Shown here piece by piece: positions 32,289 through 37,752 of a stretch of 43,864 nucleotides of DNA. The stretch's first letter is position 1, and the number at the start of each line of letters is the position of its first letter. The notes under the pieces are model-generated. The model did not search any database, had not been told where the DNA came from, and worked only from the letters and a program-made list of their open reading frames with translations. The translations under genes and the position numbers were made by a program. The stretch is taken from IMG/VR virus record IMGVR_UViG_2698536620_000007; one strand, 5' to 3'. Source of the DNA: a virus. Taxonomy: Duplodnaviria > Heunggongvirae > Uroviricota > Caudoviricetes.

Positions 32289-33212
32289 TGTTTCATGTTG
32301 ATAATAATTCCGGCGTGGCGAATATGCCTGCGCTGGCACCGGCGCAGAGTAATACCACCACCTGGTTTACCGAAGGTGACGGACAAAAAGGTATCAGCTG
32401 GATTGGTCAGGACTGGCTGAATATTCTCCAGGCCGAACTGCTGAATATTCTGGCTGAAGCCAGTATTCAGCCGGATAAGGCGCAGTTAAACCAGCTTACG
32501 CTGTCCATTAAAGCCATTATCGCTGCGAATGCCTTTTCCCGGAAAAATAACCTGAAAGAAATTGCTGATGCCGGTGCGGAGGCCCAGCGTCTGGCCCGTG
32601 GTTATCTTGGTCTGGGGACGCTTGCCACAAAAAACAGTCTTGGTCCCGCTGACGTTAATGCCCTGGCGAAGGATCAGAATCTCGCCGACCTGGAGAATAA
32701 GGGAACCGCCCGTAATAATCTGGATGTTTACAGCAAAAGCGAAGGTGATAANNNNNNNNNNNNNNNNNNNNNNNNNNNNNNNNNNNNNNNNNNNNNNNNN
32801 NNNGCGCAGGGAGCAGAACGGCGCAGACATTCCGGATAAAGGGGCTTTTATCGATAACGTCGGTTTACGGGAAACGGTAAACAGGGCGGCGAATGCCCTG
32901 CCATCGGACGGCACCGCCGTTGCCGCGAACAGGCTGGCAAATGCCCACACAATTAATGGTGTTCCCTTTGACGGGACGCAGGATATCACTATCTCATCAG
33001 GAACAGTAACCGCCATAAGACTGGGGTCGGTGACCGCACATATGCCCGGAACATGGGAAAGCTGGGATCTGAATCTGGGGGGCGGCAATGTTCTTACCGG
33101 AATTAAAGTACAGGATGTCGGTAAGAATACGGCAGATAACGTCGGCGGCGTGTATTACCGGCCGTTGCAGTATCTGTTAAATGGAGCATGGGTGACGGCT
33201 GCAAGTATATAA
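32288..33212 (+). CDS. Tail fibre protein (constant N-terminal part plus currently joined variable C-terminus); interrupted by the N gap
   Basis: N-terminal part 32288-32751 is in frame 2, post-gap part 32805-33212 in frame 0; fibre-like Gly/Asn/Thr-rich sequence; the gix-like site at 32848-32873 lies inside the gene. Confidence 0.7.
32752..32803. other. Assembly gap / masked bases (52 N)
   Basis: Run of n characters in the input. Confidence 1.
32848..32873. other. gix-like recombination site, left boundary of the invertible tail-fibre segment
   Basis: TTATCGATAACGTCGGTTTACGGGAA resembles the 26-bp Mu gix site (recalled from memory) and is the inverted partner of 34165-34190. A roughly 107-bp inverted repeat runs inward from the core. 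Confidence 0.65.
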
Positions 33213-33243: not shown

Positions 33244-33765
33244 TTACTGTGGCTGCTCAGGCCATTTAATGGCGTTAAATTCAGCTTCTGTTTTAATGGC
33301 GGGTAGTTCCATTTTCTTCACCTGACTGATGTATGCCATCCATTGGGTAAGTGCTGCTCTGTCTTCATCGCTGATGGTGCCCAGTTGTAGCTCCGTTCTC
33401 CAGTCATTAATTTTTTCATATGCCTGATTAAGATATGACTGGCGCATTGCTTCCAGTTTTCTTGCGTAGTTAACCGGAATACGGGAGATTATGCCATTAT
33501 CAAACTTCCAGTTTCCTGAAATATCCGTGCCTTCAGGGAGTTCATCGACCTCAACCACAGAAAACCCCGCAGGATACAGCGCCGAGGCGTCCTGTGATAT
33601 TGAGCAGATAACGCCGCTGTCAGGTGTTATGCAAAGTTTATATTTTTTGGTGAATAATGGCAGGGATTCGTAGAAATCCTTACCATCTTCACTCTGGAAA
33701 TACTGAACATTATTACCATATGGCATATTTTCAGGATAATAACGGGTTATATTTTTTAGTTCCAT
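33244..33765 (-). CDS. Tail fibre assembly protein (Mu U-like)
   Basis: 173 aa with the conserved Tfa C-terminal region (DEDRAALTQWMAYISQVKKMEL...WPEQP). Confidence 0.75.
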   Translation of the reverse strand: MELKNITRYYPENMPYGNNVQYFQSEDGKDFYESLPLFTKKYKLCITPDSGVICSISQDASALYPAGFSVVEVDELPEGTDISGNWKFDNGIISRIPVNYARKLEAMRQSYLNQAYEKINDWRTELQLGTISDEDRAALTQWMAYISQVKKMELPAIKTEAEFNAIKWPEQPQ

Positions 33766-33816
33766 AAAATCCTCCTGGAAATAAATCTGTTTTAAAATAT
33801 ATTATTTACTGACTAT

Positions 33817-34177
33817 TTATAACTGAGATACCGTAATCCATGTACCTCCGACTAATTTTTGCAGGGGTCTGAATGCTATAAAATCGTTTGAAGCATCAAC
33901 TTTACTGTCAATCTGCAGGCCTGCCATAACATTACCGTACGCAGAGTAATATGCCCCACCGTACATTACCTGCCTGTTCTCTGCTCCCAGCCTGATATCC
34001 TGGATATATCGGGAATCCGCATCCTGCTGTGTTATACCAGAAGTGATGTTTATGTCCTGCGTCCCGTCAAAGGGAACCCCATTAATATTTCTTGGGGTGG
34101 CGAGTCTATTCGCGGCAACGGCGGTGCCGTCCGATGGCAGAGCATTCGCCGCCCTGTTTACCGTTTCCCGTAAACCG
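33817..34177 (-). other. Alternative tail-fibre C-terminal segment (Sv'-like), no start codon of its own
   Basis: Minus-strand frame open from the right gix site to TAA at 33817-33819 (...VPFDGTQDINITSG...GTWITVSQL*). Its first roughly 35 codons match the left inverted repeat inside the plus-strand fibre gene. Confidence 0.55.
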
Positions 34178-34190
34178 AGGTTTTCAGGAA
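34165..34190. other. gix-like recombination site, right boundary of the invertible segment
   Basis: TTCCCGTAAACCGAGGTTTTCAGGAA; its reverse complement matches the left site from the central TC core inward. Confidence 0.65.
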
Positions 34191-34255
34191 AGCCAGGATT
34201 AACTCTGTTTTATTCCTCATGCGACAATTCCGGCTTTTTATAATAAGGAAATCGT

Positions 34256-34828
34256 ATGCTGATTGGGTATATCAGGGTGTCAACAAATGACCAGAATACG
34301 GCGCTACAAAGAAATGCGCTGGAATGTGCAGGATGTGAGCTGTTTTTCGAAGACAGAATAAGCGGTAAGACAAGGGAGCGTCCCGGACTTAAACGCGCAT
34401 TAAAGCGACTCCGGCCAGGGGATACCCTGCTGGTCTGGAAACTGGATCGCCTTGGACGCAGTATGCAGCACCTTGTCCTTTTAACAGAAGAACTCCGGCA
34501 ACGCGGCGTTAACTTCCGCAGCATTACGGACAATATTGATACATCCACTCCCATGGGACGTTTCTTTTTCCATATAATGGGCGCGCTGGCGGAAATGGAG
34601 CGGGAACTCATTATTGAACGTACACGCGCGGGTCTTGCTGCTGCCCGTGCTCAGGGGCGTCATGGCGGCAGACCTCAGAAACTGACAGAGAAAGAGCGGG
34701 AGCAAATCGCCCGTTTGCTGGCTAATGGCGAGTCCCGTAAACAAATCGCACTGATATTTGATATTGGCCTTTCCACCCTTTATCGTTATTTTCCTGCCTC
34801 ACCAGCTCCGTCACCAAAAGTACCGTGA
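34256..34828 (+). CDS. gin: Gin/Hin/Pin-family serine DNA invertase
   Basis: 190 aa; N-terminal GYIRVSTNDQ with the catalytic Ser and a C-terminal HTH; adjacent to the invertible segment. Confidence 0.9.
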   Translation: MLIGYIRVSTNDQNTALQRNALECAGCELFFEDRISGKTRERPGLKRALKRLRPGDTLLVWKLDRLGRSMQHLVLLTEELRQRGVNFRSITDNIDTSTPMGRFFFHIMGALAEMERELIIERTRAGLAAARAQGRHGGRPQKLTEKEREQIARLLANGESRKQIALIFDIGLSTLYRYFPASPAPSPKVP

Positions 34829-34913
34829 CGCTTTTTTGAATTTCCGCAAAACACATATTTTTCAGCGGTCGCTATTCTGACTCTGTTTAATTCAGAAACA
34901 GGCAGAAAAGACG

Positions 34914-36968
34914 ATGTCAGACTCCAAGTGGAAAATGCTCTCCGCCATGCCCGGAGAGTTTTCAGTCAAGGTTGCCGGTGGCACGGTGGCATTTATTGAA
35001 AGCCCTTTCCGCCCTTCGGGTAATAAAGGGGGGATCACCTTCGCAGACTGCGTGATCCGCTTCAGCACGAAAGAGCCATTATGGGTAATGCCGGTATCCG
35101 GTAATCCCAGTGCAGAAATCACCAGTTCAGGCGTGACTGGCATCATTCCAATCACATCTGACGTGGCCGGAACGCTCACGCCCTCCGACTGGAATGCACC
35201 GGATAACGCCGGGCCTTCCGGTAGCACGAATGGCAGCAGTTCAGAGCCGGAATATTACTTTGTTGTCATTCTCGCGGGTCAGTCAAATGGCATGGCCTAC
35301 GGCGAGGGGCTGCCGTTACCGGATTCGTTTGACCGCCCGGACCCACGCATTAAGCAACTGGCACGCCGCAGTACGGTAACGCCCAACGGTACGTCGTGTA
35401 CATACAACGACATCATTCCGGCAGACCACTGCCTGCATGATGTTCAGGATATGAGCGGGATAAACCACCCGAAAGCTGATCTGGCAAAAGGCCAGTACGG
35501 GACTGTCGGTCAGGGGTTGCATATTGCCAAAAAACTGCTTCCCTATATCCCACAGAATGCCGGGATACTTCTGGTGCCCTGTTGTCGTGGCGGGTCAGCA
35601 TTCACCACTGGAGCCGACGGCTCATTCAGTGAGGCCAGCGGTGCTTCCGCTGATTCTTCACGCTGGGGGGCCGGTAAACCTCTGTATCAGGACCTGGTAA
35701 GCCGCACCAAAGTCGCGCTGGCGAAAAACCCGAAAAACAAACTTCTGGCTGTGGTCTGGATGCAGGGAGAGGCAGACCTTGCCTCAGGAAGCCAGCAGCA
35801 TAATAGTTTATTCACGGCCATGGTTCAGCAGTTCAGAACTGACCTGGCTCCGCTTGCTGCGCAGTGCGTGAGTGGAAATGCCACCACGGTGCCGTGGATT
35901 TGCGGTGATACCACGTATTACTGGAAAAACGCTGGCACCGATAAATATGAGGCAGTATACGGTGGCTACAAAGGCAAGGAAGCACAGAAAATTTTCTTTG
36001 TACCGTTCCTGACGGATGAGAATGGACAGAGCACGCCAACGAATGCTCCGGCGGAAGACCCGGATATTGTGGCTGTCGGGTATTACGGTGCAGCATCCCG
36101 AACCCAGGGCAGTTTTGTTTCGACACAGCGTGACAGCCATTTCAGCTCATGGGCACGCAGGGGCGTCATTTCAGACCGTCTGGCCTCAGCTATTATGCTC
36201 CATGCAGGGCGCACGGCTGAACTGATGCGTGGGCAGACCGTGACACCACCGGATGAGAAGCCGTCACCTGATACACCATCAAAACCGTCCACGCCACCCG
36301 CAGACACCACGACGATGAGTACGCTATTTGCTTACCGGGCATCTGAGTCTGAAGGACGGTTGACACCACAGGGTTGGGCTGCCGGAGGTGGCAAGGCTCA
36401 AATCGTGGATGATGCCGGAGCCAGCGGGGGTAAGGCAATGAAACTGACCAAGGAAACAGGAAGAGCCCCCTGGTACCTTGAGCATGATGCTGGTAATGGT
36501 GCGGACCTGCTGGGTAAAGGTGGTCTTGTCAGTTGTCGTTTTAAACTCGATGGCGCGCTTACGGCTAATCAGTACGCACTGGCGCTGTACTGGCCGGTTT
36601 CTGCCCTGCCGCAAGGGGTTACTCTGGAAGGAAATGCCGGTCATAACCTGCTGGCATCGTTCTACGTACAGAGCGATGCCACAGACCTTAACGTGATGTA
36701 TCACAAAGGAAACACGGCGCAGAACACGAAGCTGGGGTCATTCGGCGCATTTAATAACGAATGGCATACGCTGGGCTTCCGTTTTGCCGGTAACAACAGT
36801 ATTGAGGTGACGCCGGTCATTGATGGTAAGGACGGGACACCATTCATGCTGTCGCAGTCTCCGGTCGGCACGTTTACGGCAGACAAGTTGCGCGTGACCG
36901 ATATCACTAAAAATGCGACTTACCCGGTACTGATTGACAGTATCGTGGTGGAAGTGAATAACGCGTAA
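34914..36968 (+). CDS. SGNH/sialate-O-acetylesterase-like carbohydrate esterase with a C-terminal lectin-like domain (cargo)
   Basis: 684 aa; VVILAGQSNGMAYGE (GQSN block) and VVWMQGEAD block typical of the DUF303/sialate O-acetylesterase family; Pro/Thr/Ser-rich linker (PPDEKPSPDTPSKPSTPPADTTT) before a C-terminal beta-rich domain. Confidence 0.55.
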   Translation: MSDSKWKMLSAMPGEFSVKVAGGTVAFIESPFRPSGNKGGITFADCVIRFSTKEPLWVMPVSGNPSAEITSSGVTGIIPITSDVAGTLTPSDWNAPDNAGPSGSTNGSSSEPEYYFVVILAGQSNGMAYGEGLPLPDSFDRPDPRIKQLARRSTVTPNGTSCTYNDIIPADHCLHDVQDMSGINHPKADLAKGQYGTVGQGLHIAKKLLPYIPQNAGILLVPCCRGGSAFTTGADGSFSEASGASADSSRWGAGKPLYQDLVSRTKVALAKNPKNKLLAVVWMQGEADLASGSQQHNSLFTAMVQQFRTDLAPLAAQCVSGNATTVPWICGDTTYYWKNAGTDKYEAVYGGYKGKEAQKIFFVPFLTDENGQSTPTNAPAEDPDIVAVGYYGAASRTQGSFVSTQRDSHFSSWARRGVISDRLASAIMLHAGRTAELMRGQTVTPPDEKPSPDTPSKPSTPPADTTTMSTLFAYRASESEGRLTPQGWAAGGGKAQIVDDAGASGGKAMKLTKETGRAPWYLEHDAGNGADLLGKGGLVSCRFKLDGALTANQYALALYWPVSALPQGVTLEGNAGHNLLASFYVQSDATDLNVMYHKGNTAQNTKLGSFGAFNNEWHTLGFRFAGNNSIEVTPVIDGKDGTPFMLSQSPVGTFTADKLRVTDITKNATYPVLIDSIVVEVNNA

Positions 36969-37112
36969 GCAGGATAAAAAAATGCCGCCGGTAAGGGAAA
37001 ACAAGAAACCGGCGGCAAAAAGATCGTTATATCCAAAGCAAAAAATGCAGTGCACCTTTTTACCTAACAGATATTACCGGTGTCAACACCATGTCAATAA
37101 TTGGGAGGGATA

Positions 37113-37295
37113 ATGACATTTTTACAGCTTATTTTATTGTATTTCTGCACGGCAGTATGTGCGTTATATCTGGTGAGTGGTGGTTATAAGGCCATCAGAA
37201 ATTATGTTCGCCGCAAAATTGAGGACGCAGCAGCTGAAAAACTCAGTAAAACAGCGCAGGTAACTCCGCTCCCAAAAGACCCGACCCAGCCCTGA
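37113..37295 (+). CDS. Small single-pass membrane protein
   Basis: ATG at 37113 preceded by GGGAGGG; 60 aa with an N-terminal TM helix (FLQLILLYFCTAVCALYLV). Confidence 0.35.
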   Translation: MTFLQLILLYFCTAVCALYLVSGGYKAIRNYVRRKIEDAAAEKLSKTAQVTPLPKDPTQP

Positions 37296-37330
37296 TTGCA
37301 GGGCTTTATTCCCGCATAAGGAGGATATAC

Positions 37331-37585
37331 ATGCCAGAAATTAAAGGCACCGTCACTGAAGACCTGGTAAAACAGGCACTGTATTCCGGTGAAGTAAATA
37401 AGTTGCTGAAAGCGCAGGTCCGCAAGGATTTTGAGGCACAAATCGACACTTACGTTGATGAAGTGCTGGCAAAACTTATTGGGCCAGCAGTTGCGGCCAG
37501 TGATGCTGATAATGAGCCGAAAACCGACGCGCAGCCAGAGCAACCAGACCCGGCTCAGCCCGGAACTGACAGTACCATGATGTAA
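37331..37585 (+). CDS. Small acidic protein, hypothetical
   Basis: Strong RBS AAGGAGG; 84 aa with a D/E/P-rich tail. Confidence 0.4.
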   Translation: MPEIKGTVTEDLVKQALYSGEVNKLLKAQVRKDFEAQIDTYVDEVLAKLIGPAVAASDADNEPKTDAQPEQPDPAQPGTDSTMM

Positions 37586-37752
37586 CAATACAAACCGGTG
37601 GTGTCCTCTGCCGGTTTGACACTAATGAAAACATCTTTGCCGCTATCCAGCCATATGTAATCGCTGGATAGTATTTCGTATTCAGAAATATAGCTGCTTA
37701 TGGAGCAGTCAATCCTGCTTCCCCATCCGGGCAGGCAAATGAACCGGTATCA

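Follow-up and report, generated by a model that had tools for sequence, protein, structure and literature searches.

The stretch of DNA analysed here, 43,864 nucleotides of the tailed-virus record IMGVR_UViG_2698536620_000007 of IMG/VR (hereafter the window), holds a Mu-like transposable prophage in which a three-gene cassette separates the invertase gene gin from the com-mom operon, and the first gene of that cassette very probably encodes a functional sialate O-acetylesterase of the NanS-p type as an accessory of the prophage. The protein is built like the NanS-p proteins of lambdoid phages except at its N-terminus, where a small all-beta domain belonging to the Mu-like lineage takes the place of DUF1737 (Table 1). 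A first-pass annotation, made from the sequence alone, had described a 684-residue open reading frame (ORF) with GQSN and WMQGEAD blocks, a Pro/Thr-rich linker and a beta-rich C-terminus, lying on about 3.4 kb of extra DNA between gin and com, and each of these elements was located as claimed. The interval from the gin stop (34828) to the com start (~38303) measures 3,474 bp, whereas in phage Mu (AF083977) it is 94 bp and contains Pmom alone. The esterase starts 85 bp past gin on the same strand and, in the ORF list, forms one long frame from an ATG at 34914 to a TAA at 36966-36968; PGAP annotates the identical 2,055-nt coding sequence in E. coli chromosomes that are 100% identical across 34200-39300 of the window. 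TOE17 and 23CRST047 are among the E. coli strains whose copy shows 100% identity. The exact protein sequence is recorded on at least 1,000 contigs from E. coli and Shigella sonnei and appears in public databases as "sialate O-acetylesterase", "DUF6645 domain-containing protein" and "YjhS". It belongs to phrog_143 (E 1.7e-296), a large family of phage proteins to which no function has been assigned, and no NCBIfam model matches it. The prophage itself extends over ~649-39328 of the window, as judged from colinearity with the annotated Mu-like insert of an O157 strain and from where homology to E. coli copies inserted elsewhere stops (39328), and its backbone is 88-95% identical in nucleotides to the O157-strain insert.

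The identity of the catalytic domain is indicated by two comparisons, of which that with solved structures is decisive. Pfam places the SASA family (PF03629) at residues 117-312 (E 1.5e-13, above the gathering score), and residues 110-428 align end to end, by phmmer, with the crystal structure of NanS/YjhS from E. coli O157:H7 (3PT5; E 1.8e-117), the identity within the catalytic domain being about 60-65% by our own count on the alignment. An end-to-end alignment of this significance with a solved NanS structure points to an SGNH fold for the window protein. A full-length AlphaFold2 model built on a 25-sequence alignment had a mean predicted local distance difference test score (pLDDT) of 36 and was not used; the low confidence is explained by the fact that all retrievable homologues are at least 78% identical. 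The motifs expected of the family are GQSN at 122-125, WMQGEAD at 282-288 and His409 within an RDSH block and, after correction for the 11-residue tag offset of the 3PT5 chain, Ser124, Gln123 and His409 correspond to Ser19, Gln18 and His301 of NanS and are invariant in 25 homologues. E. coli NanS, the 9-O-acetyl-N-acetylneuraminate esterase, is an SGNH type II enzyme that relies on Ser19 and His301, with an oxyanion hole of Gln18 and a Gly, and has no counterpart to the Asp found in classical triads (PMC9063846). The window protein likewise has no classical Ser-His-Asp triad, which would place a DxxH in block V: its block V reads RDSH, and that of Stx2a (Shiga toxin 2a) phage NanS-p reads RSSH or RASH (PMC10462455). 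Read from the alignment, the missing Asp is a trait of the NanS family and not a sign of inactivity. The first-pass annotation had treated the lack of a Ser-His-Asp triad as grounds for abandoning the assignment, a view that is misplaced for this family (PMC9063846), and the Ser124/His409 pair is present.

The C-terminal part is also matched by a solved structure. Residues 469-683 correspond to 6YP6, the C-terminal domain of NanS-p from the Stx phage phi24B (E 7.1e-98), and Pfam assigns DUF6645 (PF20350) to residues 533-650 (E 7e-68). For the phi24B protein vb_24B_21, a carbohydrate site made up of the aromatic residues Y510, Y515, Y540 and F611 has been proposed (PMC10462455); these map onto Y554, Y559, Y584 and F654 of the window protein, with all four conserved. 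The matches to 3PT5 and 6YP6 bear out the earlier description of an SGNH/sialate-O-acetylesterase-like enzyme with a lectin-like C-terminus. The linker that joins the two domains contains the Pro/Thr-rich stretch TPPDEKPSPDTPSKPSTPPADTTT at residues 444-467 and is the most variable segment between lineages, with 34% identity and a ratio of non-synonymous to synonymous divergence (dN/dS) of 0.32.

The N-terminal domain sets the protein apart. Searches of residues 1-100 against Pfam, NCBIfam and PHROG gave no match, and an exhaustive HMMER scan of 1.84 billion representatives returned one credible distant relative, 30% identical and from Salmonella, together with fragments of the same protein; the earlier remark that the first ~110 residues resemble nothing recognisable was therefore well founded. 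A second distant match in that scan was discarded as spurious and due to low complexity. DUF1737 (PF08410) is absent, as there is no Pfam match at E up to 1 and BLASTP against the DUF1737 N-terminus gives E = 30. An AlphaFold model from the nine available sequences has six beta-strands in residues 7-79 (pLDDT 70-87), followed by a predicted disordered linker in which residues 82-108 fall below a pLDDT of 50. When this model was compared by Foldseek with the PDB, the matches were weak and to generic cupin/jelly-roll barrels (best E 0.057), and against BFVD they were to small uncharacterised phage proteins (best E 0.0076). With no histidine in its sequence, the domain lacks a cupin metal site. 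A hidden Markov model (HMM) of the domain found no paralogue among all ORFs of the window, of an O157 Mu-like phage and of the Salmonella locus, and the domain was therefore not duplicated from another virion gene. Residues 1-112 have no significant structural or sequence match to tail proteins or to tail-attachment or adaptor domains.

Scans for the N-domain identified 51 loci, on 34 IMG/VR viral contigs and 17 metagenome contigs, onto which the proteins of the window were mapped by tblastn. All 51 lie in the same Mu-like setting, and the genes reached on each contig keep a single order: baseplate J, tail-fibre assembly gene, gin, esterase, DUF1378, DUF826, a variable slot, com and mom. The gin gene is missing from nine of the 51, several contigs stop before com or mom, and a few stop inside or just past the esterase. 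The credible distant relative, from Salmonella enterica, represents a third lineage; there too the N-domain is joined to an esterase with a GQSN block, and the gene comes right after gin in a Mu-like prophage with the Mu gp45, gp46 and gp48 families. Within 5,426 complete E. coli genomes the N-domain was present in 32, in no more than three copies each and always annotated as a DUF6645 protein. DNA resembling the 5.1-kb gin-to-mom query was present in 1,320 of these genomes and, since just 25 hold most of the query, almost all of them match by way of the esterase cassette. By this comparison the variant with the Mu-type N-domain is rare. A search of GTDB at one genome per species found no locus with the N-domain. 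In addition, tblastn of the esterase against 50,697 GenBank phage records matched 349, almost all of Stx or other lambdoid phages and only from residue ~94-112 onwards; the sole records matching residues 4-684 are those of Stx phages containing an inserted "Mu-like phage", and the N-terminal 100 residues alone match two records, both Mu-like inserts in Stx phages. Across the 51 loci, the 32 E. coli genomes and the one Salmonella locus, the N-domain was found in no other form than joined to this esterase, and in no other setting than downstream of gin in a Mu-like prophage.

Given that the cassette holds the same position in every related Mu-like prophage examined, the esterase is a stable accessory of an enterobacterial clade of Mu-like prophages and not a one-off insertion, though it is absent from Mu. 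The label of non-Mu cargo given by the first-pass annotation holds for Mu, which has no such gene at this position, and has to be given up in so far as it implied an isolated acquisition. Two further observations concern these loci. Some E. coli genomes hold two or three Mu-type N-domain copies (H79, H87 and H91), consistent with multiple Mu-like insertions. Some O157-type loci have a C5 cytosine methylase in mom's place; in the O157-type Mu-like phage LC727881 (L002 8221-9472), the place of mom after com is taken by a gene for a 350-residue C-5 cytosine DNA methylase (PF00145, E 2e-42), apparently through an exchange, in this lineage, of the DNA-modification gene that com controls.

Comparison of the modules across phage types indicates where the exchange occurs. 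Other Mu-type proteins of the window's lineage are 96-100% identical to the window protein in the N-domain (residues 1-85), 82-100% in the SASA domain and 82-94% in the C-domain, whereas the lambdoid DUF1737-type proteins are unrelated in the N-domain (12-16%) and 84-93% and 81-93% identical in the SASA domain and C-domain respectively. At one further locus (L046) the N-domain is 100% identical to that of the window, with 73% identity in the SASA domain and 39% in the C-domain. Due to this jump in identity across linker 1 and the mosaic at L046, the recombination breakpoints are placed in linker 1 (residues ~86-112). On these identities, the enzyme-lectin part is exchanged with co-resident lambdoid prophages and the N-domain stays with the Mu-like backbone. 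E. coli strain M1 carries both a Mu-type and a DUF1737-type copy, each with ~90% identity to the window protein over the region they have in common, and such co-residence would give a chance for domain shuffling.

The divergence from the O157-type Mu-like phage gives an indication of age and constraint. The interval 33310-37614, comprising the tail-fibre assembly gene, gin and the cassette, is 67-78% identical in nucleotides to that phage, and com is 92% identical. Between the window and O157-type alleles of the esterase the proportion of synonymous differences (pS) is 0.62-0.76, at which synonymous sites are saturated, the proportion of non-synonymous differences (pN) in the N-domain is 0.23, and dN/dS is 0.09 in the SASA domain and 0.13 in the C-domain. 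Given the saturated synonymous sites and the low non-synonymous divergence, all three modules have been under purifying selection and the alleles are old. It might be argued that the esterase gene has lost its function and decays as a passive passenger of a defective Shigella prophage, as Shigella genomes are rich in pseudogenes and insertion sequences, and an IS66 fragment and a lambdoid remnant lie just past the Mu-like right end. However, this is highly improbable for three reasons: first, the frame of 684 codons is intact and is 100% identical in many E. coli genomes; second, the catalytic and binding residues are conserved; and third, the dN/dS values of the folded domains are as low as those given above.

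A possible role of the N-domain is suggested by a 2026 preprint on phi24B (bioRxiv 10.64898/2026.04.10.717836). In that phage the DUF1737 domain of gp84, of ~54 residues with a helix and three strands, docks in hexameric form on the central hexons of the capsid, and full-length gp84 is plentiful in virions, from which proteolysis later releases it. This raises the possibility, put forward tentatively, that the Mu-type N-domain is an adaptor that docks the esterase to the Mu-type virion as a counterpart of DUF1737, because it sits in the same slot, leads into a linker of the same kind and stays true to the phage type even where the remainder of the protein has been exchanged. If so, the ~80-residue barrel could be an undescribed virion-docking domain that shows the esterase-lectin unit on Mu-like transposable particles, a proposal that is plausible rather than probable. 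One point weighs against it: unlike DUF1737, the Mu-type N-domain never occurs as a stand-alone protein among the 1.84 billion representatives, which speaks against a general view of these domains as decoration proteins. Furthermore, instead of anchoring the protein to virions, the same barrel might serve as a further module for binding carbohydrate or might mediate dimerisation or oligomerisation in a soluble enzyme, and this too is a speculative assignment with perhaps the same claim to consideration.

The substrate can be proposed from the characterised relatives. The members of the NanS/NanS-p family that have been tested hydrolyse 5-N-acetyl-9-O-acetylneuraminic acid (Neu5,9Ac2) and mono-, di- and tri-O-acetylated mucin sialic acids, support growth of the lysogen on Neu5,9Ac2 and are strongly induced with the late phage genes (PMC8065619, PMC8319020, PMC3658417), and NanS-p of 933W in particular has been shown to be a Neu5,9Ac2 esterase (PMC8065619). 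The first-pass annotation had proposed a different substrate, namely that the enzyme removes acetyl groups from the O-antigen of a Shigella-like host in lysogenic conversion, superinfection exclusion or receptor processing, to which the O-antigen of E. coli and O-acetylated capsules such as K1 polysialic acid can be added. Several features lend themselves to this reading: SGNH/SASA domains do occur in phage tail proteins, and the window protein has weak matches to phrog_25867 'tail protein' (E 1.2e-6) and phrog_4201 'tail fiber protein' (E 0.018) and 29% identity to an Arthrobacter phage minor tail protein; the gene adjoins the host-range module of G segment and gin, in the most diverged stretch of the prophage; de-O-acetylation of lipopolysaccharide (LPS) by NanS-p has been considered possible, although as speculation only (PMC8065619); and phi24B bears the enzyme on its virion. 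Nevertheless, action on bacterial surface glycans is unlikely. NanS, which is specific for sialates, can be aligned with the catalytic domain over its full length, and the protein is 65% identical overall to NanS-p of 933W (the closely related Stx phage 75/02 allele is 70% identical in the SASA domain). Lysogenic conversion of a periplasmic or surface O-antigen would require a signal peptide or membrane anchor, whereas the hydropathy of the esterase reaches a maximum of 1.03 and no hydrophobic segment is fit for either. The N-terminus has no homology to tail fibres or tailspike adaptors, alleles of the tail-fibre assembly gene are combined with esterase lineages independently of each other (L032, L036, L053, L056 and L057), and the same cassette is found in hundreds of lambdoid phages whose hosts have many O-antigens. 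The proposals of O-antigen modification, lysogenic conversion and superinfection exclusion thus find no support, given characterised relatives that are sialate-specific, a protein with no Sec signal and an architecture that is not that of a tail protein.

By analogy with these relatives, the substrate and host benefit of this allele may be pictured as follows. The protein consists of three modules strung on disordered linkers, and its catalytic domain is of the NanS type, with a Ser124-His409 dyad, an oxyanion hole of Gln123 and a backbone Gly, and no catalytic Asp. Its targets would be the O-acetyl esters that sialic acids, free or bound to mucin, carry at C9 (and C7/C8), while the jelly-roll lectin-like domain, with its four aromatics, probably holds it on the glycan. 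The de-O-acetylated sialic acid could then be cleaved by sialidase and catabolised by the Nan pathway, to the benefit of surviving lysogens in the gut. Because the protein has no signal peptide, it would leave the cell by phage-induced lysis or attached to virions. The three-gene cassette is shared with the lambdoid Stx phages and exchanged with them by recombination, the N-module being set by the phage type, and in Mu-like copies the barrel of ~80 residues may dock the enzyme to the Mu-type virion as DUF1737 does for phi24B; of all these steps, it is this anchor role that depends most on analogy.

The same enzymology is compatible with a different beneficiary. It is possible, though there is less reason to expect it than to doubt it, that a virion-displayed esterase-lectin binds and processes O-acetylated mucin sialoglycans for the benefit of the phage, concentrating particles in mucus or aiding their passage through it. 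The abundance of gp84 on the capsid hexons of phi24B and its proteolytic shedding over time are in keeping with such a role, as are the retention of the anchor-linker-enzyme-linker-lectin design in the Mu-like variant, the missing export signal and the conserved aromatics of the lectin site. However, growth of the lysogen on Neu5,9Ac2 has been demonstrated for lambdoid alleles (PMC8065619), and the two roles do not conflict.

The esterase does not travel alone. In Stx phage 75/02 the order is stxAB, SASA esterase, DUF1378, DUF826 and holin, and the window has the same trio with no holin; the gene order downstream of the esterase in Stx phages has likewise been noted (PMC10462455). DUF1378 follows the esterase in nearly all related loci that reach that far, and the order with DUF826 is kept there too. 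The trio moves as a unit between unrelated phage types and the holin is left behind, which suggests that DUF1378 and DUF826, two small proteins without an assigned function, are linked functionally to the esterase and not to the genes for lysis that usually adjoin them in lambdoid phages. As a separate observation, DUF1378 and DUF826 (37113-37585 in the window; L003 4905-5397) always accompany the esterase, in lambdoid and Mu-like phages alike, and the lambdoid holin does not. PADLOC defence models gave no credible match to the esterase or its neighbours, and a reading of the cassette as an anti-phage defence was dropped on that basis.

Table 1. Positions in the window of the esterase gene, its modules and the neighbouring features
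Feature	Position	Strand	Basis or remark
NanS-p-type sialate O-acetylesterase gene (probable)	34914..36968	+	684 aa, 72.4 kDa; no signal peptide or transmembrane segment
N-terminal domain, residues 1 to ~85	34914..35168	+	Small all-beta barrel (predicted) of Mu-like lineage, in place of DUF1737
Linker 1, residues ~86-112	35169..35249	+	Predicted disordered; breakpoint between N-domain types
SGNH type II (SASA) catalytic domain, residues ~113-430	35250..36203	+	phmmer alignment to NanS 3PT5
Pro/Thr-rich linker 2, residues ~431-468	36204..36317	+	Read from the sequence
Lectin-like jelly-roll domain (DUF6645), residues 469-684	36318..36965	+	phmmer match to 6YP6
gin-type serine invertase, left boundary of cassette	34256..34828	+	Pfam Resolvase and HTH_7; 70% nucleotide identity to Mu gin
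DUF1378 small membrane protein, 60 aa, second cassette gene	37113..37295	+	Pfam PF07125, E 9e-32; phrog_494
DUF826 protein, third cassette gene	37331..37585	+	Pfam PF05696, E 6e-16; phrog_311
com-mom operon, right boundary of cassette	38303..39194	+	Pfam Zn_ribbon_Com and Mom; PGAP annotation in related locus L001
IS66 transposase fragment	39413-39871		Beyond Mu-like right end (~39328)
Lambdoid tail-fibre N-terminal remnant	39925-41097		Beyond Mu-like right end
DUF4376 tail-fibre assembly-like gene	41048-41671		Beyond Mu-like right end
Intact ipaH-type NEL E3 ligase effector gene	41851-43566	-	Beyond Mu-like right end

To the right of the cassette, an orphan ORF of 97 residues (37753-38046, minus strand) lies between DUF826 and com in a low-GC patch (0.37-0.40) and has no Pfam, PHROG or PADLOC match. 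It is closely preceded by promoter-like sites at 38067-38038 and 38009-37981, and a hairpin resembling a terminator follows it closely at 37708-37694. The ORF is kept in some related loci and lost or replaced in others, and the DUF826-com interval is therefore regarded as a variable moron slot. A short way upstream of com, at 38235-38259, is the palindromic GATC-rich sequence AATCGATCGTTTTTGTCGATCGATT, which is similar to the GATC cluster ATCGATCGGTAATACAGATCGAT in the region that regulates mom in Mu. Given that this palindrome is kept next to com, the cassette was inserted between gin and an intact mom control region.

Other signals in the cassette were less informative. A promoter and terminator consensus scan of 34100-39500 gave counts that were not above those of shuffled sequence, and a weak hairpin with a T-run just past the gin stop, seen by eye, received no support from the scan tool. 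The Mu C-activator site pattern TTAT-N6-ATAA has a single match in the window, TTATTCCCGCATAA at 37306-37319, and was rejected as evidence since at least one match occurs in 31% of shuffles. The match is a perfect dyad that lies between DUF1378 and DUF826 and overlaps the ribosome-binding site of DUF826.

To the left of gin, inverted repeats of ~150 bp (32853-33001 and 34037-34185), 84-93% complementary, flank ~1.0 kb that includes the tail-fibre assembly gene, and this repeat-flanked segment beside gin is a short G-like invertible segment; the tail-fibre assembly gene is found in either orientation among the related loci, as expected of an invertible G segment. A run of 52 N (32752-32803) is located in the tail-fibre gene just left of the repeat. 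Beyond the right end of the prophage, the IS66 fragment, the lambdoid remnant and the ipaH gene indicate that the host was Shigella or similar to enteroinvasive E. coli, and the Mu-like phage is inserted into or beside an ipaH-bearing prophage remnant. The Shigella-like host suggested by the first-pass annotation is in agreement with this NEL E3 ligase gene (41851-43566) and with the UniRef representative of the exact protein, which is from S. sonnei.

The NanS-p family, its structure and its activity are already known, as is the annotation of this exact sequence. The family is an established prophage-borne factor associated with fitness and virulence, through the use of O-acetylated mucin sialic acids by enterohaemorrhagic E. 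coli, and another copy would in itself be ordinary. A search of the literature on Mu-like phages with an O-acetylesterase or NanS, and on DUF6645, found no description of the Mu-like context or of the replacement of DUF1737. The family thus extends past the lambdoid Stx phages to Mu-like transposable prophages of Shigella, E. coli and Salmonella, which insert at random and of which a genome can hold several copies. The domain swap sits exactly where the 2026 preprint placed the lambdoid capsid anchor, and makes the general display of esterases on virions testable. If the anchor role were correct, NanS-p would be a plug-and-play system, in which one enzyme-lectin cargo is moved between lambdoid and Mu-like capsids by an anchor swap at the linker, and the processing of mucus glycans by virions would be common to several phage types in enteric pathogens, Shigella included.

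Comparison with four known systems places the window protein among its relatives. Phage Mu shares the flanking genes gin, com and mom, with 70-72% nucleotide identity, and the GATC-rich operator-like sequence upstream of com is also kept in the window prophage; Mu has no esterase, DUF1378 or DUF826 between gin and com, whereas the window prophage has all three. The chromosomal NanS of E. coli is homologous over the whole catalytic domain and has the Ser/His dyad and oxyanion Gln in common with the window protein, but it is a single-domain protein of ~326 residues encoded in the NanR-regulated nanCMS operon, and the window protein is phage-encoded and has additional N- and C-terminal modules. 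SGNH esterases of phage tails and tailspikes belong to the same superfamily and act on bacterial glycans, whereas the closest characterised relatives of the window protein act on host sialic acids; the window protein, although possibly virion-borne, has no tail-fibre or tailspike architecture or adaptor. The closest likeness is to the lambdoid NanS-p proteins (L0105/z1466 of 933W and vb_24B_21/gp84 of phi24B), which have the same SASA catalytic domain and DUF6645 C-domain, the same catalytic residues and binding-site aromatics, the same DUF1378 and DUF826 neighbours and, likewise, no signal peptide. Besides being far commoner, they differ as follows: first, the lambdoid genes lie between stx/Q and the holin gene, whereas the window gene lies between gin and com-mom of a myovirus-type prophage with no holin after it. 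Second, the helix and three strands of the lambdoid DUF1737 are replaced in the window protein by an unrelated all-beta domain of ~80 residues.

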